Source of the DNA: Microcystis aeruginosa NIES-2549
Lineage (GTDB): Bacteria; Cyanobacteriota; Cyanobacteriia; Cyanobacteriales; Microcystaceae
Assembly (NCBI RefSeq): GCF_000981785.2
Contig: NZ_CP011304.1
Location: 2,880,001-2,912,000 of the forward strand
Length of the DNA: 32,000 bases
Direction of reading: 5' to 3'
Position numbers and translations under genes: made by a program
Notes under the pieces: generated by a model
Told to the model about the DNA's origin: nothing
The model's database searches: none
What the model saw: only the letters and a program-made list of their open reading frames with translations
In this document: positions 8,715 through 31,113 of the stretch, in pieces
How the letters are laid out: each line of letters opens with the position of its first letter
Position numbering within the stretch: the first letter of the stretch is position 1

Positions 8715-8744
8715 AGCTATCAGCATTCAGCATTCAGCTATCAG
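8715..8744. repeat. Heptamer tandem repeat AGCTATC/AGCATTC x4
   Basis: agctatc agcattc agcattc agctatc ag, read directly, immediately upstream of the rpoC2 start. Confidence 0.9.
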
Positions 8745-8752
8745 TTAGAAAA

Positions 8753-8789
8753 GGGAACAGGAAACAGGGAATAGGAAACGGGGAATAGG
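8753..8789. repeat. Heptamer tandem repeat GGGAACA/GGAAACA/GGGAATA x5
   Basis: gggaaca ggaaaca gggaata ggaaacg gggaata gg, read directly. Confidence 0.9.
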
Positions 8790-8861
8790 CAAATTTTTAC
8801 TTTACTGTCCTTTTTTTGGCTTTTTCCTGGAAAATTCTCTCCTGTCTCCTGACTGGAAAGA

Positions 8862-8892
8862 GGGTGTAGGGTGTGGGGTGTGGGGTGTGGGG
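8862..8892 (+). repeat. Heptamer tandem repeat (GGGTGTG) x4; G-quadruplex-type motif on the + strand
   Basis: gggtgta gggtgtg gggtgtg gggtgtg ggg gives five G3 runs separated by 4-nt loops. The + strand is the template strand for rpoB/rpoC2 transcription. Confidence 0.9.
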
Positions 8893-8956
8893 AAAGAAAC
8901 CTCTTTCATCTGTGGGGGTGAAAATTTTTTCATCGGGACTGACTCCTGACTTCTCA

Positions 8957-8988
8957 CTGATAACTGATAACTGATAACTGATAACTGA
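8957..8988. repeat. Heptamer tandem repeat (CTGATAA) x4.5
   Basis: ctgataa x4 followed by ctga. It ends 2 nt from the rpoB stop codon (tta at 8991..8993 on +). Confidence 0.9.
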
Positions 8989-8990
8989 AA

Positions 8991-11900
8991 TTACACTTCC
9001 GATTCTTCTTCCTCAAGGTCTTCCGTGGTTAAGGATTCGTAGGTGGGGCGAGAGGGGGCGCGACGGCCGACATCGACCATCAGATCCACCTCCACATCGC
9101 GGGAAGTACCATCGGGGGCATTTTCCACCTTGTGAACGGCGATATCGAGGCCGAGGGATTGCAATTCTCGCATCAAAACCTTAAAGGATTCTGGCGTACC
9201 CGGGCGGGGAATCGGCTTGCCTTTTACGATCGCATTTAAAGCCTCATTCCGTCCTTGCATATCGTCGGATTTCACCGTTAGCAATTCCTGCAAGGTATAG
9301 GCCGCCCCGTAGGCCTCCAGGGCCCAGACTTCCATTTCTCCGAAGCGCTGGCCTCCCTGTTGAGCTTTACCGCCCAAGGGTTGCTGAGTAACCAAGGAGT
9401 AGGGACCGGTAGAGCGGGCGTGAATTTTATCATCAACCAGGTGAACCAGTTTTAACATATAGGCCATACCGACGGTAACGGGACGGTCAAAGGGTTCGCC
9501 GGTGCGACCATCATAAACCGTGACTTTGCCGGCGTGTTCTTCCTTGAACACCCAATCGCGATTGGGTTTTTTCGAGGCATTTTCGAGCAATCCGTGAACG
9601 GTTAAACGGCTGGCTTCTTCCCCATACATTTCGTCAAAGGGAGTAATCTTAAAGCGTACGCCCAGATTTTCGCCGGCCCAACCCAGTAAACATTCAAACA
9701 CCTGACCGACGTTCATGCGACTGGGAACCCCTAGGGGATTGAGAACGATATCGACGGGGCGACCATCGGGTAGGTAGGGCATATCTTCTAGGGGCAGAAT
9801 GCGAGAAATAATCCCTTTATTGCCGTGACGACCCGCCATTTTATCGCCCACTTGGATTTTGCGTTTTTGGGCAACGTAGACCCGCACCACCATATTAGCC
9901 CCGGGGGGTAATTCATCCCCCTGTTCGCGGGTAAATACCCGCACATCTACTACCCGGCCTTTTTCGCCGTTGGGGACGCGGAGGGAGTTATCGCGTACAT
10001 CCCGTGCCTTTTCGCCGAAAATTGCCCGCAGTAGTTTTTCTTCAGGAGGTTGGTCTGATTCGCCTTTCGGGGTGACTTTCCCGACGAGGATATCGCTGGC
10101 TTCTACCCAGGCACCGACGCGAATAATGCCGCGTTCATCGAGGTTTCGCAGGGCATCTTCACCGACGTTGGGAATTTCCCTGGTGATTTCCTCAGGTCCA
10201 AGTTTAGTTTGACGGGCTTCGATTTCGTATTTTTCGATGTGGATACTGGTATAGACATCTTGTGCCACCAGTCTTTCACTGATTAAAATTGCGTCTTCGT
10301 AGTTATAGCCTTCCCAGGGCATATAGGCGACGAGGATATTCTGGCCGAGGGCGATTTCTCCTCCTTCGGTGGCGGAACCATCGGCGAGGATCTGTCCGGG
10401 GACAACCTGTTCACCTTGATAGACTAAAGGACGCTGATTTAAGCAGGTATCTTGGTTAGAGCGTTGATATTTCTGAATTTCGTACTCGATCTCGCTCTTG
10501 CCAAAAATCTCTTTGTCTTGATCCGCTACTTTGATGCGAATCCGGTTAGCATCGACGTAGGAAACGACCCCATTGGTACGCGAAACGATGACCATGCCAG
10601 AGTCGCGAGCGGCCTGTGCTTCCAATCCCGTTCCCACAAGGGGACGTTCGGGACGCAGCAGGGGAACCGCTTGTCGCTGCATATTAGAACCCATGAGGGC
10701 GCGGTTAGCGTCGTCGTGTTCGAGGAAGGGAATCAGGGAAGTGGCCACCGAGACAATTTGCACGGGGGAAACGCAAACGTAGTCCACTTGTTCGGGGGAA
10801 GTGGTGGAGAATTCCTGCCGATAGCGCACTGGGATAGTTTCGCCGAGGATATAACCATTTTCATCGGTGGCCACGTCTCCCGGTGCGACTCTGAGATCGT
10901 CTTCTTCGTCGGCGGTGAGGTATTTAACGGGGAGATCGTAGCGGACTCGGCCATTTTCCACCACATAACAGGGGGTTTCAATAAAACCGTAGTCGTTGAC
11001 GCGAGCGTAGGTGGCCAGGGAACCGATTAAACCGGCGTTGGGGCCTTCTGGGGTTTCCACCGGACAAATGCGACCGTGGTGGGAGGGGTGAATGTCGCGC
11101 ACGGCAAAACCGGCCCGTTCCCGGGTGAGACCGCCGGGGCCAAGGGCGGAAATGCGGCGTTTATGGGTCAATTCCGCTAGGGGGTTGGTTTGATCCATGA
11201 ACTGGGAGAGTTGCGAGGAACCAAAGAATTCTTTAATCGCCGCTACTAGGGGTTTCGGGTTGACTAGGGAAGCGGGGGTGAGGTTTTGGGATTCGCTGAC
11301 GGTCATCCGTTCCCGAATGATTCTTTCTAAGCGGTTTAAACCTACTCGCACTTGGTTTTGTAGCAGTTCACCCACGGAACGGACGCGACGATTGCCGAGG
11401 TGGTCGATGTCGTCGGTGTTGCCGATGTCAAATTCGAGGTTAATTAGGTAGTCGATCGCCGCTAAGATGTCGGTGGTGGTGAGAACGCGCTGGTTATCGG
11501 GGACGTTGAGGCGTAGTTTTTTGTTGAGTTTATAACGACCAACGCGCCCGAGATCGTAGCGTTTATTGTCAAAAAAGCGCGATTCGAGCAGTTGTTGTCC
11601 GCCGGTGACGGTGGGAGGTTCTCCGGGGCGTAGTTTGCGGTAGAGGTCGAGGAGGGACTCTTCTTCGCTGGGATTGCCTTCTTTGTCGAGGGTTTTTTGG
11701 TAAAATTCGGGATGGCGTAGGGAGTCAAAGATTTCGTTATCGCTCAATCCGATCGCTTTCAGGAGAACTTGGGCGGATAGTTTGCGAGTTTTGTCGATTC
11801 TGACCCAGACTAAGCCGTTTTTGTCGGTTTCAAATTTTAACCAAGCTCCTCGGTTGGGAATCAGGGAAGCAGAGTAGGTGCGGCGACCGTTTTTGTCGAT

Positions 11901-13830: not shown

Positions 13831-14913
13831 ATGACTCAACCGAAACGCGCCCTCATTACCGGCATCACCGGTCAAGATGGTTCCTATCTGAGCGAATTGT
13901 TACTAGAAAAAGGCTATCAAGTCCACGGTATCATCCGTCGTACCTCAACTTTTAACACCGATCGCATCGATCATATCTACACTGACCCCCACCAGCCCGA
14001 TACTAAATTATTTCTTCATTATGGCGACCTCACCGACGGGACGACCCTGCGGCGTATTCTCGAACAAGTGCAGCCGGTAGAAGTGTATAATTTAGGGGCC
14101 CAATCCCATGTGCGGGTTAGTTTTGATGCCCCAGAATACACCGTTGATGCTGTGGGGGTGGGAGTTTTAAGATTACTAGAAGCAATTCGGGATTACCAAA
14201 AAAGAACCGGCATCGAAGTGCGTTTCTATCAAGCAGGTTCCTCGGAAATGTTCGGGAAAGTCATGGAAGTTCCCCAAAAAGAAACCACGCCATTTTATCC
14301 CCGCAGTCCCTACGCTTGTGCGAAAGTTTACGGTCACTGGCAAACAATCAACTATCGGGAATCCTACGACTTATTTGCCTGTAACGGCATTTTATTTAAC
14401 CATGAATCCCCCCGGCGTGGAGAAACTTTTGTCACGCGCAAAATTACCCGCGCTTTGGCCCGAATTATTGCTGGACAACAGAAAAAACTCTATTTAGGAA
14501 ATCTCGATTCTAAAAGGGATTGGGGTTATGCTAAGGATTATGTGCGGGCGATGTGGTTAATGTTACAACAGGAAGAACCGGATGATTATGTAGTGGCGAC
14601 AAATGAAACCTATTCTATCCGGGAGTTTCTCGATATTTCTTTCCAATACGTTAATTTAAATTGGCAGGATTATGTGGAGTTTGATGAACGTTATTTGCGT
14701 CCGGCGGAAGTGGATTTATTAATAGGAGATTCCACAAAAGCCAGGGATAAATTAGGTTGGCAGCCGTCGGTGACGTTCGAGGGACTGGTAAAATTAATGG
14801 TAGATGCGGATTTAGCGGCTTTGGGGATTAATCTTAATAACGCTGGTGATAGCGAACAGTTATTAAAAGATTTGGCTTATCTTCGCAATCGTTCCTTAAT
14901 TGCCGTCGATTAA
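13831..14913 (+). CDS. gmd: GDP-mannose 4,6-dehydratase, 360 aa
   Basis: [44 protein letters not shown], then GSSEMFG, YACAKVY and [20 protein letters not shown]. These are textbook Gmd motifs. Confidence 0.95.
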
Positions 14914-14919
14914 AAAGTC

Positions 14920-14948
14920 GGGTGGGTTAGGGAAGCGCAACCCATCCC
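14920..14948. terminator. Stem-loop between convergent gmd (+) and GT2 (-); member of a small hairpin repeat family
   Basis: GGGTGGGTT-agggaagcgc-AACCCATCC(C), a 9-bp stem with one G-T pair. A related hairpin lies at 16548..16572. Confidence 0.4.
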
Positions 14949-14981
14949 CCGTCTTGATCCATCGCCATTTTTACCTGACTT

Positions 14982-15938
14982 TTAGGAATAAATAGGGTCT
15001 TTTTCCAGCAAACCTAGCAATTTTTGCATTTTAATCCAAGCCCTTCTCATTTGCCAGAATTTACTTTTTTCCATTGCGGCTATTTTACTGTCAGCTTCTC
15101 GATAATCCAATTGGGTTTTTTGCAATTCTTGTTGCAATTCTTGTTCATGAATTTCTAATTGTTTAATTCGTTCTCTAGCCTGTTCCAACTGAGCGAATAT
15201 ATCGACTTTTAAGGTGACTAAAGCGGCAAAAATGGCTTGGATATTTTGGGAGTAAAGTTGGGGATGATTATAGAAAAGCTGCGTATAGGAATAAATATAG
15301 TGTTCTGCGGTCATTGAGCGACTCATAGAATCAGCTTTTTGTCGATAGAAAAATAACACTTCTGGGATACGATAGACTTCTCGACCTAATTCGATCAGAG
15401 ATAACCAAAAATCGTGATCTTCCCAACCATAAATTAAATTAGTATTATAGCCCCCCACAGTTTCCCAGTCGGATTTCCGAAACAAACCGGAGCAAAATAT
15501 CATATTATCTACTAATATATCTGGAAATTTATACTCAGGCAGCGGCCAAATTCCTTGTCTATCCCCAAAATACTCCGCTTCGCAATAAACTATCCCTAAT
15601 TGCTCATTACTTTCTAGCAAAGTAACCGCTTTTTCTAGATAAGAATCGGCAATTTTATCATCGGCATCAAGGGGAAGAATATAGGTTCCTTGCGCTTGGG
15701 CAATTCCTAGATTTCTCGCTGTGGCAACCCCTTGATTTTCTGTGCGGATGATCCGGGTTTTTGGCTGTTGATAATCTTGTAAAATCTCGATGGTTTCCGG
15801 TTCTGTGGAGCCATCATCGATGACAAGGATTTCAAGGCTTTGGTATTTTTGTACTAAAAGAGATGAGATCGCATCATCAAGATAGCGACCTTGATTATAG
15901 CAAGGAATAATTACGGAAACTTGAGGAGCATGACTCAT
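14982..15938 (-). CDS. Family 2 glycosyltransferase with a C-terminal coiled-coil extension, 318 aa
   Basis: VSVIIPCYNQGRYLDDAISSLLVQKY..LEILVIDDGSTE...LPLDADD gives the GT-A DxD signature. The tail is heptad-rich (QLEIHEQELQQELQKTQLD). Confidence 0.85.
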   Translation of the reverse strand: MSHAPQVSVIIPCYNQGRYLDDAISSLLVQKYQSLEILVIDDGSTEPETIEILQDYQQPKTRIIRTENQGVATARNLGIAQAQGTYILPLDADDKIADSYLEKAVTLLESNEQLGIVYCEAEYFGDRQGIWPLPEYKFPDILVDNMIFCSGLFRKSDWETVGGYNTNLIYGWEDHDFWLSLIELGREVYRIPEVLFFYRQKADSMSRSMTAEHYIYSYTQLFYNHPQLYSQNIQAIFAALVTLKVDIFAQLEQARERIKQLEIHEQELQQELQKTQLDYREADSKIAAMEKSKFWQMRRAWIKMQKLLGLLEKDPIYS

Positions 15939-19318: not shown

Positions 19319-20149
19319 ATGGTAATACAATCGGTCAGTTTAACAGTTAAGGACTATAAGTCTAACATTCCCGTGGCCATCTTGTGTGGTGGCAAAGGAA
19401 CCCGACTACGGGAAGAAACCGAATTTCGACCTAAGCCGATGATTGCCATCGGAAATCGACCGATTATTTGGCATATCATGAAAACTTATGCCCAATATGG
19501 GTTAACTGACTTTATGCTCTGTCTAGGGTATAAAGGGGAAATAATCCGGGACTATTTCTTTAACTATGATTGGAATCAAAGTGATGTCCTCTTAGAGTTA
19601 GGCAATAAAAAAGTGACCAAACTCGATAGTGGACACCAGGAGGAAGACTGGCGTATTTGGTTAATTGATACGGGACCCGAAACCATGACGGGAGGCCGTC
19701 TTAAACGTCTCACCCCTTACATAGAGAGAAGTGGAAGCGAGATCTTTTTGGCCACCTATGGGGACGGGGTTTGTGATGTGAATATTGCGGATCTGTTGGA
19801 CTTTCATTACTCTCATGGGAAATTAGCCACGATGACGGCGGTTCGTCCTTCTTCTCGCTTTGGCGAGTTAATCATTGAGGGTAATTTAGTCACCCAATTC
19901 CAAGAAAAGCCCCAAACGGCTGAAGGATGGATTAATGGGGGGTATTTTGTCTTAAATCGCAAGGTTTTGGATTTAATTGAGGGGGATGCGACGACTTTTG
20001 AAGCACAGCCCCTAAGAACCCTGGCTGCTTTGGGAGAACTCGCCGTCTATAAGCATGAAGGGTTTTGGCAGTGTATGGATACTTATCGAGAAATGGAAAT
20101 GCTCAATCACCTTTATGACACTGGACAAGCTAGATGGAAAATATGGTAA
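19319..20149 (+). CDS. rfbF: Glucose-1-phosphate cytidylyltransferase, 276 aa
   Basis: VAILCGGKGTRLREETEFRPKPMIAIGNRPIIWHIMKTYAQYGLTDFMLCLGYKG, with the C-terminal GFWQCMDTYREMEMLNHLYDTGQARWKIW typical of RfbF/DdhA. Confidence 0.9.
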   Translation: MVIQSVSLTVKDYKSNIPVAILCGGKGTRLREETEFRPKPMIAIGNRPIIWHIMKTYAQYGLTDFMLCLGYKGEIIRDYFFNYDWNQSDVLLELGNKKVTKLDSGHQEEDWRIWLIDTGPETMTGGRLKRLTPYIERSGSEIFLATYGDGVCDVNIADLLDFHYSHGKLATMTAVRPSSRFGELIIEGNLVTQFQEKPQTAEGWINGGYFVLNRKVLDLIEGDATTFEAQPLRTLAALGELAVYKHEGFWQCMDTYREMEMLNHLYDTGQARWKIW

Positions 20150-20329
20150 AGGAAGCATTTTAGCCTGGCAAAAAAGTCTTTATTACTGGTCATACGGGCT
20201 TTAAGGGGTCTTGGCTGGCCTTTTGGTTACTCCATCTGGGGGCAGCGCTAAAAGGCCTCAGTTTAGCTCCCAATACCACCCCCGCCTTATTTGACCAATT
20301 AGACTTAGCTCAGAACCTGAGTCATCATA
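20060..20329 (+). repeat. Direct repeat copy 1 (270 bp) of the rfbF-3'/rfbG-5' junction
   Basis: Aligns without gaps to 21956..22225 (offset 1896), with about 13 mismatches by eye (~95% identity). Confidence 0.9.
20134..20329 (+). pseudogene. Truncated 5' fragment of CDP-glucose 4,6-dehydratase (rfbG) with a premature stop
   Basis: Same reading frame as the intact rfbG start at 22030. TGG (22057..22059) is TAG here (20161..20163). Homology ends at 20329. Confidence 0.85.
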
Positions 20330-20422
20330 ACCGAACTCAAGTCATTGACAGATAATCAATCCTTTAATAGCAGGGGGGACTAAGTGGACATAGTGAATTC
20401 AATACATCTCCAGATTAAGCAG

Positions 20423-21703
20423 ATGCTCAAAAAGCCATCAAAAATTGATGGCAGATTTTTGGTAATTGCTGCAGTCTTAGGATATTTTGGGTTATTGTAT
20501 GTAGCTAATTTTTTTGTTCCCTATCACAATTTTTGGTGGAGACTTGGGGTTCCTGCGGCTACAAACCCCTTTATCGATCTTGCAGCCGTATTAGGTGCTT
20601 TTGATTGTGATCGATTGACTGAGGAAGTTTCGCTAACAAATAATTCTTGCTTCAATCAAATATCTTATCCTAGTAGTTGGTCTTCGTTAACTTGGCTGGG
20701 GTTAGAGCAGCGTGATACTATATTTTGGGGAGTTTTCTTTGCTTTAATCTTTTATGGGATAACTTTAATTATCATTGGCAGATTAAATTATCAAGAAGCT
20801 GTAGTTTATGCCCTAATTTTATGCTCACCACCGGTAATGCTTTTAGTGGAACGTGGCAACGTAGATATTGTTATCTATTCTTGGCTGGGTGTCGCACTAA
20901 TGATAATTAAGAATAGCCGAGAATTAATTTTTAGGTTGTGTGCCTACTTATTAATATTTTTTTGGGGAGTTGTTAAACTATTTCCCATTTTCGGTCTGGC
21001 AGTAATTATTAAAGAAAAAAGAAATCTATTTCTGTTCTTGTCGGCTATTTTTACCACTGCTTTTATTACTTATTTTCTCGCTAGTATAGGGCAGTTGAAA
21101 ACTATCTCAAGCGTTCATGATGGGAGAATTTGGTATAGTTTTGGCTATAAAGTCCTCTTTGGTGCAGTCACATATATTCTATCAAAGCTTACTAGCGGCG
21201 AAACTGATCTTAAAAATACGATCATATATATGATGTATATAATTATGATTTTATTTACTATGTCAATCTTGACCAGATTTTTATTGTCGAAATTTAAAAT
21301 TTTTCGAGAATGGCTTAGGTCTGATTTTGTGTCAGCAGATTCGAGCAAATCTTTAGATAAAAGTCCATATATTGATTACTTCCGTCTTGCGGCAGCAATT
21401 CATTTAGGAAATTTTCTTGTTATTGGCATGCTTTATGATTACAAATTAACTTTTCTAATCTTTGCCCTTCCTCAAATCTTGGATTGGATTAAGCAAGAAA
21501 ATCAATTGAGCTTACCTGCCAGTATGGGTTTAGTCGCTATGGTGGCAACCTTTTACGCAAGTCCATTTTTATATCCTTGGTTAGTTGATGAAATGATCAA
21601 TTGGCTCTTAGCTGCCAATTTATTATACATGGCAATTCTCTCTATGCCTGAATGGCTAAAAAGTTTAGTCCATAGGAGATTATCTGGCAAATTTTCCGTA
21701 TAA
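20423..21703 (+). CDS. Polytopic integral membrane protein of unknown function (possibly GT-C-fold glycosyltransferase or O-antigen polymerase-like), about 426 aa
   Basis: The long ORF has roughly 10 or more hydrophobic segments, is visibly AT-rich, and lies inside the insertion between the duplicated rfbF/rfbG junctions. I prefer ATG 20423; the track start 20384 is GTG. The D-rich loop plus SYPSSW after the first TM only loosely resembles GT-C motifs. Confidence 0.6.
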   Translation: MLKKPSKIDGRFLVIAAVLGYFGLLYVANFFVPYHNFWWRLGVPAATNPFIDLAAVLGAFDCDRLTEEVSLTNNSCFNQISYPSSWSSLTWLGLEQRDTIFWGVFFALIFYGITLIIIGRLNYQEAVVYALILCSPPVMLLVERGNVDIVIYSWLGVALMIIKNSRELIFRLCAYLLIFFWGVVKLFPIFGLAVIIKEKRNLFLFLSAIFTTAFITYFLASIGQLKTISSVHDGRIWYSFGYKVLFGAVTYILSKLTSGETDLKNTIIYMMYIIMILFTMSILTRFLLSKFKIFREWLRSDFVSADSSKSLDKSPYIDYFRLAAAIHLGNFLVIGMLYDYKLTFLIFALPQILDWIKQENQLSLPASMGLVAMVATFYASPFLYPWLVDEMINWLLAANLLYMAILSMPEWLKSLVHRRLSGKFSV

Positions 21704-21795
21704 AAGTTTAACCCCGGGCTAATATATAGCAAAATTAGATGAATTGTCAAATCCCCTTAAGCAATTGACATCCTCGGTCAAGTTCCTGTATAGTA

Positions 21796-21850
21796 GCTCC
21801 CAAAGAGTTAGGGGGATGGGTTTAAGCCTTGACGAAAACTCTTTGGGAGC
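21796..21850. repeat. Perfect 14-bp inverted repeat (GCTCCCAAAGAGTT / AACTCTTTGGGAGC) with a 27-nt loop
   Basis: Read directly. It lies 93 nt downstream of the membrane-protein stop and about 105 nt inside the right edge of the insertion. Confidence 0.85.
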
Positions 21851-21955
21851 GATTACTTGCACAAAGCTGCTGCAATTAACTGAAAACCCAGTATAGCGAG
21901 TCTATTTGACTTGTGAACAATAATAGCTCCCCTCTCCTTCCAGGATGAGCCTGAT

Positions 21956-22045
21956 GGGTTTTGGCAGTGTATGGATACTTACCGAGAAATGGAAATGCTC
22001 AATCACCTTTATGACACTGGACAAGCTAGATGGAAAATATGGTAA
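21956..22045 (+). pseudogene. Orphan 3' fragment of rfbF (last ~29 codons)
   Basis: Translates to GFWQCMDTYREMEMLNHLYDTGQARWKIW*, identical in protein to the end of the intact rfbF. A stop codon lies shortly upstream in frame. Confidence 0.8.
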
Positions 22046-22225
22046 AGAAAGCATTTTGGCCGGGCAAAAAGGTCTTTATTACTGGTCATACGGGCTTTAA
22101 GGGGTCTTGGCTGGGGTTTTGGTTACTCCATCTAGGAGCAGAGGTAAAAGGCCTCAGTTTAGCTCCCAATACCACCCCCGCCTTATTTGAGCAATTAGAC
22201 TTAGCTCAAAACCTGAGTCATCATA
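21956..22225 (+). repeat. Direct repeat copy 2 (270 bp) of the rfbF-3'/rfbG-5' junction
   Basis: See copy 1. This copy carries the intact rfbG 5' end. Confidence 0.9.
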
Positions 22226-23148
22226 TAGGAGATATTCGAGAGCCTGAGTTAGTGGCTCGTTTAATCGCTTCATGGCAGCCGGATGTAGTCTTTCATTTAG
22301 CGGCACAACCCCTAGTGCGGCTTTCTTATCTTGAGTCGGTGGAAACGTGGAACACAAATGTTATGGGGACTATTCACGTTTTAGAGGCCCTCAAGAGCCT
22401 GAATCATCCCTGTGCCGCCGTGTTTATTACTAGCGATAAGTGCTATGAGAATCGGGAATGGGTCTATGGTTATCGGGAAAATGACCCCTTAGGGGGTTAT
22501 GATCCCTATAGTTCTAGCAAAGCGGGGGCGGAACTGGCGATCGCATCTTGGCGCAGTTCCTTCTTTAAAACTCCTCAAACCGCCATCGGCATTGCCAGCG
22601 CCAGGGCCGGAAATGTCATCGGTGGCGGAGATTGGTCTCTAGACCGGATTGTACCCGATGCAATGCGGGCCTTGATGAAGTCCGAAGCGATTCCGGTGCG
22701 GAACCCTCTAGCGACTCGCCCTTGGCAGCACGTTTTAGAGCCTTTAGGGGGCTATTTACGGTTAGCTGAGTCGATTTATGAGCAGTTGATGACGGCTAAT
22801 TGGCAGCAAGACAGCCGGGGGTTATATGGGGCGTTTAATTTCGGTCCGTCTCTGACTTCTAATCGTCCGGTTAAAGAGTTAGTTGAGTCTATCCTACAAC
22901 TTTGGCCGGGGACTTGGCTCGATCAAAGTGATCCGAAGGCTGTTCATGAGGCTAAATTGCTTAATCTAGTCACAGATAAGGCTTTCCATACCCTAAAATG
23001 GCAACCCGTCTGGGATTTTCGGCAAACCCTCAAGGAAACCGTGACATGGTATTATCAAGCGGCGCAAATGGACTCTCAAGATAAGGCACAATTCCAGGAA
23101 CTTACCCGCCAACAAATCGAATATTATCAAAGTTGTCTGAGCGATTAG
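22030..23148 (+). CDS. rfbG: CDP-glucose 4,6-dehydratase, 372 aa
   Basis: FWPGKKVFITGHTGFKGSWLGFWLLHLGAEVKGLSL, ITSDKCYEN and YSSSKAGAEL (SDR YxxxK) match RfbG/DdhB. An alternative start is ATG 22039. Confidence 0.9.
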   Translation: MENMVKKAFWPGKKVFITGHTGFKGSWLGFWLLHLGAEVKGLSLAPNTTPALFEQLDLAQNLSHHIGDIREPELVARLIASWQPDVVFHLAAQPLVRLSYLESVETWNTNVMGTIHVLEALKSLNHPCAAVFITSDKCYENREWVYGYRENDPLGGYDPYSSSKAGAELAIASWRSSFFKTPQTAIGIASARAGNVIGGGDWSLDRIVPDAMRALMKSEAIPVRNPLATRPWQHVLEPLGGYLRLAESIYEQLMTANWQQDSRGLYGAFNFGPSLTSNRPVKELVESILQLWPGTWLDQSDPKAVHEAKLLNLVTDKAFHTLKWQPVWDFRQTLKETVTWYYQAAQMDSQDKAQFQELTRQQIEYYQSCLSD

Positions 23149-23222
23149 TGAACTCAAGGCTGATAATAGTGCAAATTAAGTGATAATTAAGTTCAAATTT
23201 CTCCCCTGAAAGGAAATTAACC

Positions 23223-24563
23223 ATGACTCAATCTATTTCTCCCCTCAATACCAATACTGAAGCAGAACTGCGAGAGCAAGTCTTTCAAGCCGTACAAGAA
23301 TATTATAAGCACAAATTTCACCCCCGGGCTTTTGTGGCGGGGCAGACCTATATTCCGGCATCGGGTAAGGTATTTGATGAGCAAGAATTAGTCAAATTAG
23401 TGGATTCTTCCCTAGATTTTTGGTTAACGACGGGCAGATATGCGGCAGAATTTGAGGAACGTTTTGCCCAGTGGATGGGGGTAAAACATTGTTTATTAGT
23501 CAATTCCGGCTCTTCGGCCAATTTAGTGGCCTTAAGTGCCTTAACTTCCCCTAAACTGGGGGAAAAACAACTTAAACCGGGGGATGAAGTCATTACCGTC
23601 GCCGCAGGTTTCCCGACTACAGTTAATCCCATCTTTCAAAATCAGCTAATTCCGGTCTTTTTAGACGTTAAATTACCCGGTTATGACCTTGATATTGATC
23701 AACTGGAATCGGCCTTGTCAGAGAAGACTAAAGCGATTATGATCGCTCATACCTTGGGAAATCCGTTTAATTTAGAAGCGGTGATGGCTTTTGCCGAAAA
23801 ACATGACCTCTGGGTAGTCGAGGATAACTGTGACGCGGTGGGAAGTCTCTATAAAGGGCAAAAAACTGGCACCTTTGGGCATTTAGCAACGGTTAGCTTT
23901 TATCCTGCTCATCACATGACTATGGGAGAAGGGGGAGCGGTTTTAACCAGCGATACCCGCTTGAAAAAGATTGTCGAGTCATTCCGTGACTGGGGGAGAG
24001 ATTGTTGGTGTCCTCCGGGTGTAGATAATACCTGTAATAAGCGCTTTGGTTGGCAGTTAGGAGATTTACCCTTTGGTTATGACCATAAGTACACCTATTC
24101 TCATGTGGGTTATAACCTGAAGATGACCGATATGCAAGCCGCCGTCGGGGTAGCGCAACTGGATAAATTGCCCGGATTTATCAAAAAGCGTCGGGAAAAT
24201 TTCGACTTTTTGCATCAAAAGTTACAGGAGCTTCAAGATGTTTTAATTCTGCCTGAAGCCAGCCCGGATTCTGAACCGAGTTGGTTCGGGTTTCCGATTT
24301 TTGTTAAGGAAAATGCTCCTTTTAGCCGCAATGATTTGGTTAAGCATTTGGAGGAAAAACGCATCGGCACAAGGCTATTATTTGGGGGAAATTTACTGCG
24401 ACAACCTCTTTATAAGGGGTTAAATTATCGAGTTATTGGGGATTTAAGTAATGCCGATAAAATCATGAGTAGTGTTTTTTGGCTGGGCATTTATCCCGGA
24501 TTAACCGAGGAAATGTTAACCTATGTAGCAACGACCATCAGAGAATTTTGTCATGGCCAATAA
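23223..24563 (+). CDS. rfbH: CDP-6-deoxy-L-threo-D-glycero-4-hexulose 3-dehydrase (E1; RfbH/DdhC/AscC-type), 446 aa
   Basis: DegT/DnrJ-fold protein in which the usual Schiff-base Lys position reads [14 protein letters not shown] (His, 23910..23915). It has a C-x-C-x7-C motif [12 protein letters not shown] (24003..24035), as in the Fe-S, PMP-dependent E1 dehydrase. Confidence 0.85.
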
Positions 24564-24675
24564 AATTACCGAACTTTTGGGACAAAAGTTCAGGTTAAGG
24601 AAAATATGGCGGCTCTTCTCGTTTCTGTGTGGAAGGAAGAAGAATAGGGATGATTTTCCAAAAGTATAATGTTCA

Positions 24676-24743: not shown

Positions 24744-25679
24744 ATGAAAGTATTGATTACTGGTGCCAGTGGTTTTGTTGGTTCCCATGTAGCAAGGCTT
24801 TTAATAGCCGAAGGGTGTGAGGTACACGCACTTGTGCGAGAAAACGGCGAACAATGGCGAATTCAAGATATTCTTCCATCACTACATTTATGGCAATCTG
24901 ACTTAGTAGCATTTGAAACAGTGAATGCTTATTTACAGAAAATCAAGCCTGAATTGTGTATTCACTTAGCTTGGTATGTTGGGTCAGGAAAACAACTAAA
25001 TTCTCGGGAAAACTTGAATTCATTTCAGGCAAGTCTTAATTTATTCTCTCAACTAGCTGAAGTAGGTTGTAAGCGGTTTGTGGGTATAGGGACTTGTTTT
25101 GAGTATGATTTCAATCTAGGATATTTTTCTGAATCAAGTCCGACAAAACCCATCACCTTATATGCAGCGACCAAGGTGGCACTATTCACTATTTTACAAC
25201 AACTAGCCCAGAGCGCCGAAGTAGAGTTAACATGGGTTCGTTTGTTTTATCAGTATGGTCCAATGGAGGATGAGCGACGGTTAATTCCGTCGGTTATTTG
25301 TTCACTGCTGCGGGATGAAGTGGTAAAAACAACTAAAGGTGAACAAGTTCTGGATTTCCTTCATGTTGAGGATATAGCATCGGCAATTTGGGCAGTTGCG
25401 AAGAGCAACGTTTCAGGTGTAGTTAATGTTGGTTCTGGTCAACCTGTAACCGTTGGACAAATAGCACTTGAACTTGGTAATTTATTAGGTAAACCTGATT
25501 TAATTCATCTGGGTGCTTTACCTTACCGTCCCAATGATCCCATGTTTATTTGTGCTAATAATGAGTTGCTTAGGAGAAAGACTGATTGGACACAAAAATA
25601 TAATTTAACGACGGGATTAAAAAATACAATTGAATGGTATAAAGACCATTTAAACATAAATAAAATTGAGGAAATTTAA
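24744..25679 (+). CDS. NAD(P)-dependent extended-SDR epimerase/reductase (candidate CDP-3,6-dideoxyhexose synthase, RfbS/RfbJ-like), 311 aa
   Basis: MKVLITGASGFVGSHVARLL (GxxGxxG) and YAATKVA (YxxxK). The position immediately after rfbF-G-H suggests the 4-keto reductase step. The specific sugar cannot be assigned. Confidence 0.7.
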   Translation: MKVLITGASGFVGSHVARLLIAEGCEVHALVRENGEQWRIQDILPSLHLWQSDLVAFETVNAYLQKIKPELCIHLAWYVGSGKQLNSRENLNSFQASLNLFSQLAEVGCKRFVGIGTCFEYDFNLGYFSESSPTKPITLYAATKVALFTILQQLAQSAEVELTWVRLFYQYGPMEDERRLIPSVICSLLRDEVVKTTKGEQVLDFLHVEDIASAIWAVAKSNVSGVVNVGSGQPVTVGQIALELGNLLGKPDLIHLGALPYRPNDPMFICANNELLRRKTDWTQKYNLTTGLKNTIEWYKDHLNINKIEEI

Positions 25680-25680
25680 G

Positions 25681-26628
25681 ATGAGTAAAAAATTAATTAG
25701 TGTTGTTACTCCCTGCTACAATGAACAAGATAATGTTGAGTTTTCATATACTGAGGTCAAAGATATTTTTGCAAGATTAGGAAAGTATGAATACGAACAT
25801 ATTTTTATTGATAATGACTCTCAAGATAAAACAGTCAGTATATTAGAGAAAATCTCTCAAAGCGACTCTAGAGTCAAAATTATCATTAACGCTAGGAATT
25901 TTGGCTTTGTTCGTTCTACCTATTACGGCCTCTTACAAGGAACTGGAGATGCGGTTATTTTAGTCTTCGCCGATTGTCAAGATCCTCCCGAACTAATCGT
26001 CGATTTTTTAGAAAAATGGGAGGAAGGCTATCAAGTTGTTAAAGGAATTAAAAGCTCGAGTCAAGAGAATTCTTTGGTCTATGGTATAAGAAAATTTTAT
26101 TATTTTTTAGTTAGGACTCTATCAGAAGAGATTGACTTAACTGCTAATTTTACGGGCTTCGGTTTATATGATCACAAAGTGATAGAAGCATTGCGTTTGA
26201 TCGATGATCCTTATCCCTACTTAAAGGGTCTTATTTCAGAAGTCGGTTTTAAGAGCACTAAAATCGAATATCATCAGCAAGTCAGAAAACGAGGTAAGAG
26301 TAGTTTCAATTTTTATCGAATGTACGATCTGGCAATGCTGGGCATCACTACCTATTCTAATTTTCCGCTAAGATTGGCGACAATGATCGGGTTCGCTCTA
26401 TCTCTAGTGAGTTTTCTGGTCGGTCTGGTGACTTTGATTTTGAAGCTTCTGTTTTGGAACCTTTTCCCCATAGGAATAGCAGCGATCATTATCGGATTGT
26501 TTCTTTTTTCTTCTGTACAGTTATTTTTTATAGGTATTTTAGGAGAATATATTGGTTTGATAAATAGACGAAGCTTAAAAAGACCTCTAGTGGTAGAGAG
26601 AGCGCGAGTCAACTTTGATATTAAATAG
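25681..26628 (+). CDS. GtrB/ArnC/DPM1-like family 2 glycosyltransferase (polyprenyl-phosphate sugar synthase) with two C-terminal TM helices, 315 aa
   Basis: ISVVTPCYNEQDNV...IFIDNDSQDKT...FADCQDPPELI, plus a C-terminal hydrophobic pair (LATMIGFALSLVSFLVGLV...IAAIIIGLFLFSSVQLFFIGILGEYIG). ATG 25681 is preceded by GAGGA. The track start 25666 is TTG. Confidence 0.85.
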   Translation: MSKKLISVVTPCYNEQDNVEFSYTEVKDIFARLGKYEYEHIFIDNDSQDKTVSILEKISQSDSRVKIIINARNFGFVRSTYYGLLQGTGDAVILVFADCQDPPELIVDFLEKWEEGYQVVKGIKSSSQENSLVYGIRKFYYFLVRTLSEEIDLTANFTGFGLYDHKVIEALRLIDDPYPYLKGLISEVGFKSTKIEYHQQVRKRGKSSFNFYRMYDLAMLGITTYSNFPLRLATMIGFALSLVSFLVGLVTLILKLLFWNLFPIGIAAIIIGLFLFSSVQLFFIGILGEYIGLINRRSLKRPLVVERARVNFDIK

Positions 26629-26676
26629 TGAACAGTATTTTTAGACAATTTCGTACCGAAATGAGAATTTATTAAC

Positions 26677-27685
26677 ATGGAACGCCATACTAAAATCAGA
26701 TTTATTAGCACAATTATAGTTATAGGCTTTGCCATCGCCGTTTTTTATCACTACAGGATGGGAGCTTATTTAGGCAATCAACATCCTCTTAATACTTTTT
26801 TATTTACACCTAACGATAAGTTTAATGACTTTTGGAACATGGTTAAATTTATCAAAGAACTTAATCCCTACAGAAGTGATGTTTATATTTTTGGTATATA
26901 TAGCAAAGAGCGGGGTGGTTAGGACAATCAATCGCTGAAACCCTTGACCGATAAGAGTTTGAAAATTGAAAGCGTCCTAACTAACTCGTTCTATGCCATA
27001 TTATCCATTGGGGGAGTTATTTTTCTTCCCGTTTACTATATTTAAGAGCAGAGATTTAGCACTATTAGTATTTTTGAGTATTTTTGGCTCTACCGAACCT
27101 GTCATGTAAAACTATCAACAATTCGTGCTTGTAAAGTTTGTATACTAAGGCTTTGAGTTTTTGTTAGATTGATATTTATCAACTTTAGAGCATTGCTGGG
27201 CAGAGAGGGAGCTTGAGGAATTTTCTACAGTGTAAGTTCGGAAGAACCTTTTTGATTGGGTTTCACTACTTTTGAGACCCTATTCTGTACTATCGTTAAT
27301 AATAGTAGGATTGGTAAGTTTATACATTCTGACTAAGGAGAAACTTTTCTGGAAAAAACTAGCTCTTTTAGTTTTTGTGATGAATGTTATCCCCCCCACA
27401 TCAGGAGATTATCGACTGCTCAATCTTTTTATTCCTTTGGCTTTTTTTATTAATGAACCAAAGTCAAGTAAGTTTGATTTAGCCTATCTGATCCTGTTTG
27501 GTCTTTTGCTCATTCCCAAAAATTACTTTATTATTCCAGCCATGACCGATATCGGACTTAGCATAGGAGTTATTATTAATCCATTGTTAATGTTAATATT
27601 TGGGTTTTTGATTATTAAGGAAGGATTAAGTAAGACAACAAGAGATATACCCAAACAAAGCCTTGATAGGTCAGTTCGAGAATAA
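26677..27685 (+). pseudogene. Fragmented membrane protein gene, probably a GT-C-fold (DUF2029-like) glycosyltransferase partner of the GtrB-like enzyme
   Basis: There are three co-linear pieces. Piece 1 is 26677..26922 (TM helix, then PNDKFNDFWNMVKFIKELNPYRSDVY). Piece 2 is 26981..27109 in the +1 frame (MPYYPLGELFFFPFTIF...ALLVFLSIFGS). Piece 3 is 27236..27685 (four or more TM segments). The DF...NPY...YPPL-like pattern resembles GT-C enzymes. Several stops lie between the pieces. Confidence 0.45.
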
Positions 27686-27741
27686 GTTTAACCTGATTGC
27701 CCAATTGTGAGAGACAATAGACAAAATATGACTAATACTGA

Positions 27742-27783
27742 CAATTGAGAGCGCTAGGGGTTGACATTGATGATAGTTTATGA
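27742..27783 (+). pseudogene. Orphan remnant of a Uma2-gene C-terminal tail (QLRALGVDIDDSL*)
   Basis: caattgagagcgctaggggttgacattgatgatagtttatga parallels the tail ends of the genes ending at 28541 and 29448 (LRALGVEVDDSV*). An in-frame TGA immediately precedes it. Confidence 0.6.
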
Positions 27784-27821
27784 TAGGAAAGTAGCACCAG
27801 TTGTTCACCCCAACTAATCCA

Positions 27822-28541
27822 ATGGCTGAAGAAACCCTCCTAATTGCAGCTAACCCACAAGGGATCAAGCTACCACCGACCCAAGATGAGCTACCTTCTG
27901 ATGATGGTATTCCCATGGAAACCCAGCGACACGGACTGCAAATGCAGTTATTAGTTAGACCTCTCTCCCAATGGTTAAAAACTCAGGGACGAGAAGCGTT
28001 TGTCGGAGGCAATATGTTTGTTTACTTTAGCCCTAATCAAGTGCGTAACGAGGATTATCGCGGGCCCGATGTATTTGTAGTTGTGGACGTGCCTCGAAAA
28101 GAAAGGAAAAGCTGGGTCGTCTGGGAAGAAGAGAAAGCCCCTGATGTGGTGATTGAGTTGCTCTCTGAAAGTACAGCGCAAAAAGATAAAGAAGAGAAAA
28201 AACTCATCTATCAGAATCGTTTGCGGGTGACAGAATACTTTTGGTATGATCCCTTTGACCCAGAAGATTTAGCGGGACATCGCTTAGAAGGGGGTGTTTA
28301 TAAATCTTTAAACCCAGATGCTCAAGGCAGGTTCAGCAGCGAAATATTAGGGCTAGTGTTAGTGCGGTGGCAGGGAATTTATGGGGATGAACAAGAGCCG
28401 ATTACTTGGCTACGTTGGGCAACAGCAGAGGGGCAATTGCTCCCCACCATAGAGGAGTTGGCCGAGCAGGAAAAGCAACGGGCTGAACGCTTGGCAGCAA
28501 AATTAAGAGCGCTAGGAGTTGAAGTTGATGATAGTGTATGA
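27822..28541 (+). CDS. Uma2-family (DUF820) putative PD-(D/E)xK endonuclease with a C-terminal coiled-coil tail, divergent paralog
   Basis: LPSDDGIPMETQRH...GPDVFVVVDVP...APDVVIELLSESTAQKDKEEKKLIYQNRLRVTEYFWYDP is the Uma2 pattern as I recall it. Tail: EQEKQRAERLAAKLRALGVEVDDSV. ATG 27822 is preferred over TTG 27801. Confidence 0.75.
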   Translation: MAEETLLIAANPQGIKLPPTQDELPSDDGIPMETQRHGLQMQLLVRPLSQWLKTQGREAFVGGNMFVYFSPNQVRNEDYRGPDVFVVVDVPRKERKSWVVWEEEKAPDVVIELLSESTAQKDKEEKKLIYQNRLRVTEYFWYDPFDPEDLAGHRLEGGVYKSLNPDAQGRFSSEILGLVLVRWQGIYGDEQEPITWLRWATAEGQLLPTIEELAEQEKQRAERLAAKLRALGVEVDDSV

Positions 28542-28656
28542 AATAATTGCAGGCATTGTCCACCTACAGGTCTATTTGATAATTAATTTAATGCACCTAC
28601 TTAGTCGTGGACAGTTTATGAGAGCTTATTAAATATAGGAAGGACTGTTTACGACA

Positions 28657-29448
28657 ATGACACCATCTACAATTAATTTGTTCAAAAAATCAACGATAAT
28701 CACCTGGGAAAAACTGCCAGATGATTTTATTCTACCTGACGAACCTGTGGACAACAACTTGCAACCCCTATTAGCAGCAGCTTTACGAGAATCGTTAGAA
28801 TTAGCAGGACTAATTCTAGAATCGATGCTAATTGCCTCTAATTTTGGCTTGTGTGCTACCGTTAAAACTCAAACTGTTGTCAAAGCACCTGATTGGGTTT
28901 ATATTCCCTCAGTAAAACCGATTGCTAGTGGAGAAATTCGGCGCAGTTATACTCCCCATCTCCAAGGAGAAATTCCTACCATCGTCCTAGAGTTTATCTC
29001 GGAAACCGAAGGGGGTGAGTATTCCATCAATCCTCACTATCCCTATGGAAAATGGTATTTTTACGAGCAAATCTTACAAGTACCTGTCTATGGAATATTT
29101 CAGCCAAAAACAGGAGAATTAGAAATTTATCGATTGAATCAAGGAAGGTATGAACAACAAAAACCTGATGAAAACAATCGTTATTGGATAGCAGAGATTA
29201 ACTTATTTTTGGGAGTCTGGCAAGGAACCAAAGCTGAATTTACTACTAATTGGTTGCGCTGGTGGGATAAGTCGGGCAATCTGTTATTATGGGGGAGTGA
29301 GTTAGTAGAGCAAGAAAAGCAACGGGCAGAGCAAGAAAAGCAACGAGCCGCGCAAGAAAAACTGAAGGCCGAGCAAGAAAAGCAACGGGCCGAACGCTTG
29401 GCGGCACAATTGCGATCGCTGGGAGTTGAAGTTGATGATAGTGTATGA
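28657..29448 (+). CDS. Uma2-family putative endonuclease, tandem paralog A, 263 aa
   Basis: WEKLPDDFILPDEPVDNNLQP...KAPDWVYIPSV...IPTIVLEFISETEGGEY...YGKWYFYEQILQVPVYGIFQP. The tail has a 4x heptad repeat and ends RLAAQLRSLGVEVDDSV. Confidence 0.75.
   Translation: MTPSTINLFKKSTIITWEKLPDDFILPDEPVDNNLQPLLAAALRESLELAGLILESMLIASNFGLCATVKTQTVVKAPDWVYIPSVKPIASGEIRRSYTPHLQGEIPTIVLEFISETEGGEYSINPHYPYGKWYFYEQILQVPVYGIFQPKTGELEIYRLNQGRYEQQKPDENNRYWIAEINLFLGVWQGTKAEFTTNWLRWWDKSGNLLLWGSELVEQEKQRAEQEKQRAAQEKLKAEQEKQRAERLAAQLRSLGVEVDDSV
29308..29391 (+). repeat. In-frame 21-bp tandem repeat x4 (EQEKQRA heptads) in the tail of paralog A
   Basis: Units at 29308, 29329, 29350 and 29371: gagcaagaaaagcaacgggca / gagcaagaaaagcaacgagcc / gcgcaagaaaaactgaaggcc / gagcaagaaaagcaacgggcc. 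The gene ending at 28541 has a single unit. Confidence 0.9.
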
Positions 29449-29564
29449 GATAATTGCAGGCATTGTCCACCTAGATGTCTATTTTATAATTAATTTAATG
29501 CACCTACTTAGTTGCGGGCAGTTTATGAGAGCTTATTAAATATTAGGAAGGACTGTTTACGACA

Positions 29565-30332
29565 ATGACACCATCTACAATTAATTTGTTCAAAAAATCA
29601 ACGATAATCACCTGGGAAAAACTGCCAGATGATTTTATTCTACCTGACGAACCTGTGGACAACAACTTGCAACCCCTATTAGCAGCAGCTTTACGAGAAT
29701 CGTTAGAATTAGCAGGACTAATTCTAGAATCGATGCTAATTGCCTCTAATTTTGGCTTGTGTGCTACCGTTAAAACTCAAACTGTTGTCAAAGCACCTGA
29801 TTGGGTTTATATTCCCTCAGTAAAACCCATTGCTAGTGGAGAAATTCGGCGCAGTTACACTCCCCACCTCCAAGGAGAAATTCCTACCATCGTCCTAGAG
29901 TTTATCTCGGAAACCGAAGGGGGTGAATATTCCATCAACCCTCACTATCCCTATGGAAAATGGTATTTTTACGAGCAAATCTTACAAGTACCTGTCTATG
30001 GAATATTTCAGCCAAAAACCGGAGAATTAGAAATTTATCGATTGAATCAAGGAAGATATGAACAACAAAAAACTAATGAAAACAATCGTTATTGGATAGC
30101 AGAGATTAACTTATTTTTGGGAGTCTGGCAGGGAAAAAAAGCGGAAGTAACAGCCTATTGGTTACGTTGGTGGGATAAGTCGGGCAATCTGTTATTGTGG
30201 GGGAGTGAGTTAGTGGAGCAAGAGCGTCAACGAGCCGAACAAGCTGAGTTAGAACTTGAGCAAGAACGAATTTCTCGCCAACGTTTGGTGCAAAAGTTAA
30301 AAGAGTTGGGAGTCAATCCTGAAAATCTATAG
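29565..30332 (+). CDS. Uma2-family putative endonuclease, tandem paralog B, 255 aa
   Basis: Residues 1-168 are identical in protein to paralog A. It differs in the patch QQKTNENN...GKKAEVTAYW and in the tail (..ELGVNPENL). Confidence 0.75.
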   Translation: MTPSTINLFKKSTIITWEKLPDDFILPDEPVDNNLQPLLAAALRESLELAGLILESMLIASNFGLCATVKTQTVVKAPDWVYIPSVKPIASGEIRRSYTPHLQGEIPTIVLEFISETEGGEYSINPHYPYGKWYFYEQILQVPVYGIFQPKTGELEIYRLNQGRYEQQKTNENNRYWIAEINLFLGVWQGKKAEVTAYWLRWWDKSGNLLLWGSELVEQERQRAEQAELELEQERISRQRLVQKLKELGVNPENL

Positions 30333-30366
30333 CCCATTTTAGATATTTGAATTAGTGAAATTACTT

Positions 30367-31113
30367 ATGACAGCCATGCAACTACTTCAGTCAAACCCCT
30401 TACCAACTATTACCTGGGAAAAACTGCCAGAAGATTTCATTCTACCTGACGAACCTGTGGACAACAACTTGCAACCCCTATTAGCAGCAGCTTTACGAGA
30501 ATCGTTAGAATTAGCAGGACTAATTCTAGAATCGATGCTAATTGCCTCTAATTTTGGCTTGTGTGCTACCGTTAAAACTCAAACTGTTGTCAAAGCACCT
30601 GATTGGGTTTATATTCCCTCAGTAAAACCCATTGCTAGTGGAGAAATTCGGCGCAGTTACACTCCCCACCTCGAAGGAGAAATTCCTACCATCGTCCTAG
30701 AGTTTATCTCGGAAACCGAAGGGGGTGAGTATTCCATCAATCCTCACTATCCCTATGGAAAATGGTATTTTTACGAGCAAATCTTACAAGTACCTGTCTA
30801 TGGAATATTTCAGCCAAAAACGGGAGAATTAGAAATTTATCGATTAAATCAAGGAAGGTATGAACAACAAAAACCTGATGAAAACAATCGTTATTGGATA
30901 GCAGAGATTAACTTATTTTTGGGAGTCTGGCAAGGAACCAAAGCTGAATTTACTACTAATTGGTTGCGCTGGTGGGATAAGTCGGGCAATCTGTTATTAT
31001 GGGGGAGTGAACGAGTCGCACAAACTGAATATCAACTCGAACAGGAGCGAATGTTACGGCAAAAATTAGCTGAAAAATTAAGAGAATTAGGCGTTGAACC
31101 AGAAACCTTGTAG
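30367..31113 (+). CDS. Uma2-family putative endonuclease, tandem paralog C, about 248 aa
   Basis: Distinct N-terminus (MTAMQLLQSNPLPTI). The core is near-identical to A and B. It has the A-type variable patch (PDENN...GTKAEFTTNW) and a B-like tail class (..ELGVEPETL). ATG 30367 is preferred over GTG 30355. Confidence 0.75.
   Translation: MTAMQLLQSNPLPTITWEKLPEDFILPDEPVDNNLQPLLAAALRESLELAGLILESMLIASNFGLCATVKTQTVVKAPDWVYIPSVKPIASGEIRRSYTPHLEGEIPTIVLEFISETEGGEYSINPHYPYGKWYFYEQILQVPVYGIFQPKTGELEIYRLNQGRYEQQKPDENNRYWIAEINLFLGVWQGTKAEFTTNWLRWWDKSGNLLLWGSERVAQTEYQLEQERMLRQKLAEKLRELGVEPETL

Follow-up and report, generated by a model that had tools for sequence, protein, structure and literature searches.

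Genes and direct repeats of the rfb cluster

The window analyzed here is a stretch of 32,000 nucleotides (nt) from Microcystis aeruginosa NIES-2549 (contig NZ_CP011304.1, positions 2,880,001 to 2,912,000), in which a CDP-3,6-dideoxyhexose cluster has pieces of two of its genes, rfbF and rfbG, repeated on both sides of a third gene, X. All coordinates are window positions unless a contig is named. The three pathway genes are on the plus strand, are full length, and score above the NCBIfam equivalog cut-offs. They are rfbF, glucose-1-phosphate cytidylyltransferase (19319-20149, 276 amino acids [aa]; TIGR02623, E value 3.2e-103, 344.6 bits against a cut-off of 300.25), rfbG, CDP-glucose 4,6-dehydratase (22030-23148, 372 aa; TIGR02622, 2.3e-143, 477.6 bits, cut-off 278.45), and rfbH, CDP-4-keto-6-deoxyglucose 3-dehydrase (23223-24563; NF011936, 2.9e-230, 764.4 bits, cut-off 423). 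The rfbF and rfbG genes are thus intact, as an earlier first-pass annotation of this DNA had stated. A partner reductase for RfbH (RfbI/DdhD type) was not detected among the window open reading frames (ORFs) scanned and may be elsewhere in the genome.

The repeat search returned a single direct-repeat family in the window, with 281-nt copies at 20049-20329 and 21945-22225 (both on the plus strand), 94% identical and offset by 1896 nt. Compared base by base, 20060-20329 and 21956-22225 align without gaps and with 13 mismatches, in agreement with the 270-bp gapless repeat of about 13 mismatches described previously. Starting from 20049, the mismatches rise to 16, as the similarity fades over 20049-20059 and the copies are clear only from 20060 and 21956; at the other side, the likeness breaks off sharply at 20329/22225, and there is none past either end. 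Copy 1 is composed of the last 29 codons of the functional rfbF and of a dead 5' relic of rfbG (codons 1-65, 20134-20329, plus strand), with a TAG stop at 20161-20163 where copy 2 has TGG. Copy 2 contains a dead 3' relic of rfbF without an in-frame start codon (21956-22045, plus strand), followed by the first 65 codons of the functional rfbG. Both the gene content and the nonsense change had been correctly recognized from the start. We also searched for further rfbF remnants upstream of copy 2, but local alignments of 21704-21955 with rfbF and with the spacer preceding rfbF were no better than those of shuffled sequences, so the left boundary at ca. 21945-21956 is real.

The DNA between the repeats has a G+C content of 36%, versus 44% for the window. 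It contains one membrane-protein gene, X (20384-21703, plus strand, 439 aa, 35% G+C), and a 14-nt perfect inverted repeat, both as originally reported; X has a predicted GT-C fold. The spacer before X (20330-20383, plus strand) includes GAACTCAAG at 20333-20341, and the spacer after X (21704-21944, plus strand) has at 21756/21757 the position where seven other loci carry an additional segment (see below). The arms of the inverted repeat (21796-21809 and 21837-21850, plus strand) leave a 27-nt loop. We considered this hairpin (21796-21850) as a terminator or as a repeated element and rejected both, since it has no T-run and no second copy in the window (fold z-score of -2.0). Another hairpin is found right behind the rfbH stop (24563-24600, GAACTTTTG-GGAC-AAAAGTTC), with ACCGAACT just ahead of it. 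No recombinase or transposase was found among the larger window ORFs scanned, consistent with the first-pass annotation.

The best sigma-70-like match of the region, TTGACA-18-TATAGT (21765-21794, plus strand, 11/12, a consensus match only), points at rfbG. With this candidate promoter before copy 2, rfbF-relic-X on one side and rfbG-rfbH and the genes that follow on the other are probably separate transcription units now. The final ca. 30 nt ahead of the rfbG start are invariant in both copies, which would fit a role of the rfbF relic as the source of the native translation-initiation region of rfbG.

The relics in other Microcystis strains

Fourteen further public Microcystis contigs were examined, about 11 of them independent after merging duplicates. 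Both relics are spanned by six (L001, the complete chromosome CP097576.1; L004, strain NIES-2521; L087; L088; L172; and L174), while L089, L090, and L092 reach only the rfbF side and L002, L003, L007, L173, and L175 only the rfbG side. Every one of them has the relic together with X on whichever side it reaches. The joint between the rfbG relic and the pre-X spacer (...GCGGCGCAA|TGAGCG...) is identical in L087, L088, L089, L090, and L174, and the joint between the post-X spacer and the rfbF relic is identical in the window, L004, L007, L087, L172, and L174. The empty site, i.e., contiguous rfbF-rfbG, that the first-pass annotation had proposed to look for in related genomes did not appear in any of the Microcystis contigs examined, in a sampling limited to one scan per collection; contiguous rfbF-rfbG was encountered in other genera alone, at ≤81% aa identity. 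The insertion first proposed is not supported as a recent event or as one confined to this strain, since both novel joints are common to all the Microcystis loci reaching them.

A collapsed or mis-joined repeat in the window assembly could be suspected, as repeats of ca. 280 nt exceed the short-read length and most of the public contigs bearing X measure 1.5 to 2.5 kb, approximately the distance between the repeats. From these contig sizes, short-read assemblies seem to break systematically at the flanking repeats. However, CP097576.1, NIES-2521, and several independent metagenome assemblies all have this order, and the copies differ by 5 to 8%, enough for read separation. The arrangement is therefore neither an assembly artefact of the window, to which we give practically no credence, nor specific to one strain.

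The repeated segment was once longer than it is in the window. The rfbG relic has 93 codons in most strains (seven), with a common end joint in L087, L088, L089, L090, and L174; that of L092 is interrupted at ca. codon 88, and that of L172 contains many frameshifts. An extra deletion of 94 nt, ending exactly at 20329/20330, is common to the window and L004. The 270 bp that had been taken as the duplicated extent are thus the eroded remainder of a larger relic. A continuation in register past codon 93 was not accepted; tblastn extends the relic to codon 117 in L087 and L090, but at the DNA level this alignment scores lower than the one with the 3' end of rfbG, and we regard it as noise. Erosion has also proceeded by other lesions. 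The TAG at codon 10 of the rfbG relic is shared by the window, L001, L087, and L089, and there are strain-specific lesions, such as a 5-nt insertion (L004), multiple frameshifts (L172), and small inserts (L088, L089, and L092). In the complete chromosome, a DDE transposase gene sits within the rfbG relic (L001 4376-5644), an insertion that cuts repeat copy 1 to 226 nt and takes away the first 60 codons of X.

Between-strain variation was measured on nine copy-1 and six copy-2 sequences. The rfbG part differs between strains by 10.9% in the relic versus 6.4% in the gene, and the rfbF part by 7.1% versus 3.0% (2.3 times). The relics are under relaxed constraint and evolve faster than the functional copies. 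Comparing copy 1 with copy 2, there was not a single fixed difference, 22 polymorphisms were shared, and the copies appeared intermixed in a neighbor-joining tree, from which it follows that sequence passes between the copies, through gene conversion or recombination between strains. As a consequence, the divergence of ca. 5% in the window, first attributed to a donor allele or to age, is neither a clock nor a donor signature. The outcome that had been set against the insertion reading was an architecture shared by the relatives, the lack of any empty site, and two copies evolving as ancient paralogues. We found the first two in the Microcystis contigs examined; the third does not apply, as the copies exchange sequence.

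The region between the repeats is variable too. Seven loci have a 1.48-kb segment between X and copy 2, at the equivalent of 21756/21757, that is missing from the window, L001, and L004. It carries ORF300, a 300-aa gene on the minus strand with a DXD-like motif (FIDDDV) and without a Pfam match (L174 5009-5908, L007 312-1211, L088 5356-6255, L087 10899-11798, and L172 6679-7578). ORF300 is 96 to 100% identical between strains whose X alleles differ by 12 to 25%. In L172, there is an extra gene of 348 aa, with no Pfam match, between rfbG and rfbH (9732-10778), and rfbG is annotated nine codons longer.

A particular case is L087, with two different intact X alleles in tandem (7161-8486 and 9316-10653), 94.6% identical in DNA and with identical N-terminal halves. 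The hybrid junction between them (8733-9260) begins copy-2-like, finishes copy-1-like, and includes a 161-nt insert (8986-9146) resembling a miniature inverted-repeat transposable element (MITE). This is either real cassette stacking via the repeats or a chimeric metagenome contig. We have downgraded L087 as proof of unequal crossing-over, given that the X copies are different alleles and that, in a metagenome contig, a chimeric path through the repeat is possible.

The tandem in L087 raises the question of whether the repeats are kept as built-in homology arms for RecA-dependent gain, loss, swap, and amplification of an X cassette, that is, a recombinase-free switch of surface glycosylation. 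Besides L087, the mosaic polymorphisms inside the repeats would fit, and so would the diversity of the X alleles (75 to 99% aa identity), far larger than that of rfbF, rfbG, and rfbH (91 to 99%). However, the deletion product was not seen, many of the relic lesions would inactivate rfbG after most crossovers, the faster evolution of the relics argues against selection on them, and L087 may be a chimera across the repeat, so we hold such upkeep to be very improbable. Somewhat less far-fetched, yet still improbable, is that the junction repeats, bordered by the conserved rfbF and rfbG, act as portable homology arms with which ordinary recombination adds, stacks, swaps, and drops GT-C/ORF300 cassettes between co-occurring strains or the genome copies of a polyploid cell. 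If true, the cell-surface glycan would be diversified, e.g., against cyanophages, by a cassette system that needs no recombinase, and L087 would be one of its products.

Gene order in outgroups and the origin of the repeats

Outside Microcystis, rfbF is found immediately before rfbG in 64 out of 69 other species. Only two non-Microcystis clusters with X beside these genes were found. Cyanothece sp. BG0011 (L005) has the order rfbF-rfbG-X-rfbH, with aa identities of 76% (rfbF), 79% (rfbG), 84% (rfbH), 68% (the family 2 glycosyltransferase [GT2] of the cluster), and 39% (X), and L176 has rfbF-rfbG-X (79, 81, and 40%, respectively). In both, X begins 12 to 13 nt behind an intact rfbG and has 32 to 34% G+C, so the low G+C content is a trait of the family and not the mark of a recent import. 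We had considered it as a sign of foreign origin and discarded it, the downstream GT2 region of the window being as AT-rich as X and the outgroup X genes (other genes of the cluster likewise have 32 to 36% G+C).

In Microcystis, X also follows rfbG, but what it follows is the relic. Given that the X homologue is located directly behind an intact rfbG in the two nearest outgroups, it was probably rfbG that moved, and not X, contrary to the first description of X as foreign DNA. Most likely, copy 1 represents the remains of the original rfbG in its original place, and a second rfbG, accompanied by 89 nt of rfbF, came to lie behind X. The spacer before X points weakly in the same direction. Downstream of the 93-codon relic, the sequence is similar to the final codons and the 3' flank of rfbG, and this pre-X region is the best non-self match of an rfbG-end query in 71 kb of Microcystis DNA. 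Within the window, GAACTCAAG occurs only at 20333 and at 23150, 2 nt after the rfbG stop (two matches versus 0.21 expected). These similarities suggest that the pre-X spacer may be a remnant of the rfbG 3' flank.

Taking all this together, we consider it reasonably probable that a single old segmental duplication changed the gene order in a CDP-dideoxyhexose glycosylation module and left the repeats behind as pseudogene relics. The repeats would thus not mark a recent insertion. The ancestral order would have been rfbF-rfbG-X-(rfbH), as in the nearest outgroups. One reciprocal recombination generating a duplication would then have placed a second rfbG behind X, still with the last ca. 30 codons of rfbF attached. 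By one route, an unequal crossover would have produced a tandem duplication of rfbF'-rfbG-X (where rfbF' is the 3' end of rfbF), after which the second X and the body of the first rfbG would have been lost. By another route with the same topology, a circularized rfbF'-rfbG-X fragment would have integrated into a cluster without X, the upstream rfbG decaying afterward. In either case, the redundant upstream rfbG would have lost its body by deletion, down to 93 codons and later to fewer, and the relics would have decayed by nonsense mutations, frameshifts, deletions, and insertions of insertion sequences (IS) or MITEs, while gene conversion or recombination between the copies would have partly homogenized them.

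Both routes, and the insertion proposed first, share a common ground. Campbell-type single-crossover integration is topologically equal to a tandem duplication by unequal crossing-over, and only one novel joint is needed. The first-pass annotation was thus right in seeing here the product of one reciprocal recombination, and the Microcystis locus, with a contiguous segment duplicated in direct orientation on both sides of intervening DNA, does resemble a Campbell-type product. It differs from one in that neither an empty site nor a recombinase was found, nor was the insert encountered free or in another form, in that the event is ancient and eroded, and in that the duplicated segment was probably much longer than its present remainder.

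As originally formulated, a circle with X and ca. 0.3 kb of rfbF/rfbG junction would have entered an intact junction by a single crossover, adding a foreign gene. This explains the direct repeats of one contiguous target segment around extra DNA, the survival of both pathway genes, and the lower G+C content of the insert. However, the Microcystis contigs lack an empty site, both joints are common to all the strains reaching them (and the event is therefore old), the relic once had at least 93 codons, possibly followed by rfbG 3'-flank sequence, the outgroup homologues of X are found behind an intact rfbG with the same AT-richness, and other genes of the window cluster are similarly low in G+C. 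Furthermore, such a circle would need two joints formed illegitimately in the donor, and no source for it is apparent. The search for the insert elsewhere returned 111 X homologues; those with a source name at 75 to 99% identity are nearly all from Microcystis, and the next best are at ≤53%. Where the context could be read, all 111 are in chromosomal polysaccharide clusters, and none is linked to the junction segment as a circle, plasmid, phage, or other locus. This small circle is the poorest fit to the data when set against the tandem duplication and the larger circle, and we regard it as doubtful.

The larger circle is slightly more plausible, although we still think it unlikely. A Campbell-type integration of rfbF'-rfbG-X from a donor with the order rfbF-rfbG-X into an X-less rfbF-rfbG-rfbH recipient, with later decay of the upstream rfbG, takes a single step and no second deletion of X, yields exactly the original structure deduced above, with an rfbG-rfbH spacer that never held X, and counts on donor-type and recipient-type orders that are both present in the outgroups. 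Against it, an X-less Microcystis cluster was not found, and the present sequence does not separate it from tandem duplication plus loss.

Several observations weigh against the duplication-and-loss origin that we favor. No intermediate with two complete rfbG copies appeared in any locus read. The 74 nt that separate rfbG from rfbH hold no relic of a second X, so the tandem-duplication route needs a clean second deletion. The pre-X spacer resembles the rfbG 3' flank over a short stretch only. Moreover, the related motif ACCGAACT occurs before the hairpin that follows rfbH as well as after the rfbG relic (20330) and, in the form GAACTCAAG, after rfbG (23150), and it may be a recurrent post-gene intergenic motif of the operon. 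A derivation of the post-X spacer from the rfbG-rfbH spacer plus the start of rfbH was weak (3 of 300 shuffles, about rank 4 of 1,590 windows) and was not used as evidence. Part of the mosaic of the copies could come from short-read assemblies mixing both repeats. Finally, the outgroup order comes from only two clusters with X, at 39 to 40% identity, and an independent recruitment of X may have taken place.

Gene X, its surroundings, and related systems

X itself has no match in Pfam or NCBIfam (for PF09594, none at an E value of ≤1). A distant homologue, P0108, matches PF09594 at 1.1e-10, and five more (P0097, P0100, P0101, P0102, and P0111) have a precomputed match to this family. The X family profile found no PDB sequences. 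The AlphaFold (AF2) model of X (27 homologues) is confident and all helical, with a pLDDT of 86 and a pTM of 0.88. Its top PDB fold matches are to PimE (GT87; 9dm5 and 9dm7, E value of 2e-4, prob 1.0, TM 0.46 to 0.53), and GPI mannosyltransferase I (9wno) is also among the best; over PimE and 9wno, the TM values range from 0.45 to 0.53, which are moderate scores. A GT87 enzyme is expected to have a catalytic acidic residue in its first extracytoplasmic loop and to use a lipid-linked sugar donor; in the 27 homologues, D65 and the E156/N159/D161 motif are invariant. X is thus predicted to be a membrane glycosyltransferase of the GT-C fold, nearest to PimE/GT87 and putatively dependent on a polyprenyl-phosphate sugar.

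Downstream of rfbH, the module continues on the plus strand with an SDR epimerase/reductase (24744-25679) and a GT2 polyprenyl-phosphate glycosyltransferase of the PgfS/ArnC type (25666-26628). A GT2 of this type together with a GT-C enzyme resembles the three-component periplasmic glycosylation systems, i.e., GtrA/GtrB/GtrC, ArnC/ArnT, and PimE with polyprenyl-phosphate mannose. Unlike in them, the window yielded no GtrA homologue, and a CDP-derived dideoxyhexose would serve as the sugar. In contig L006, an X homologue is found directly behind a GtrA-like gene. X would likely be a lipid-phosphate-sugar-dependent transferase that places the CDP-derived dideoxyhexose on a surface glycan, and its family would represent uncharacterized GT-C glycosyltransferases tied to the CDP-dideoxyhexose pathway in bloom-forming cyanobacteria.

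After the GT2 gene, 26629-27800 has a G+C content of 0.34 and only fragmentary membrane-protein ORFs (81 and 137 aa), and it may be another decayed gene; this low-G+C stretch (26600-27800) did not match the X-family proteins or the Cyanothece locus. Directly downstream of the sugar cluster, there are four tandem paralogues of the Uma2 family (putative restriction endonuclease-like, 27801-31113), whose copy number varies by strain (at least four in L001 and one in L004). Two more sugar-related genes, for a GDP-mannose 4,6-dehydratase and a second GT2 (13831-15938), lie ca. 4 kb ahead of rfbF, with housekeeping genes (prephenate dehydrogenase, cupin, and SRPBCC) in between, so the surface-sugar genes are scattered in this region.

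The tandem-duplication/random-loss model explains changes in gene order and is best known from animal mitochondrial genomes. The change from rfbF-rfbG-X in the outgroups to rfbF-(rfbG relic)-X-(rfbF relic)-rfbG in Microcystis conforms to it in gene order, and relics of rfbG and rfbF, though not of a second X, are found where lost copies would be expected. The differences from the mitochondrial cases are the bacterial chromosome, the failure to find a relic of the second X, and the ongoing gene conversion between relics and functional copies.

The closest known phenomenon is provided by gene remnants in the dideoxyhexose O-antigen (rfb) clusters of Salmonella enterica, in which wzy remnants persist between wbaV and wbaU (Reeves et al. 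2013, PMC3715488). As in Salmonella (PMC3715488), a dead fragment of a cluster gene stays put after its function has passed to another copy, the remnants are lineage specific through serial deletions and IS insertions, and the pathway is the same (ddh/rfbFGH). In Microcystis, unlike in Salmonella, the functional replacement is in the same cluster and brought a piece of the neighboring gene with it, and a third gene is thus enclosed by a direct repeat made up of the two relics; in addition, the cluster belongs to a cyanobacterium, and its glycosyltransferase is of the GT-C type instead of Wzy. We found no paper on this Microcystis cluster.

The locus represents neither a new mobile element nor a new mechanism, but a further example of a duplication-and-loss relic in a surface-polysaccharide cluster. 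On the reading that we prefer, it is a clean bacterial case in which gene order changed by duplication and loss and both relics can still be read. There are practical consequences as well, since the repeats appear to break short-read assemblies and can give rise to chimeric contigs, and the relic leads annotation pipelines to call spurious "epimerase" fragments. For the organism, rfbG in this cluster has become uncoupled from rfbF and probably has its own promoter, and the high variability of the X alleles makes the locus relevant to the diversity of surface antigens and phage receptors.

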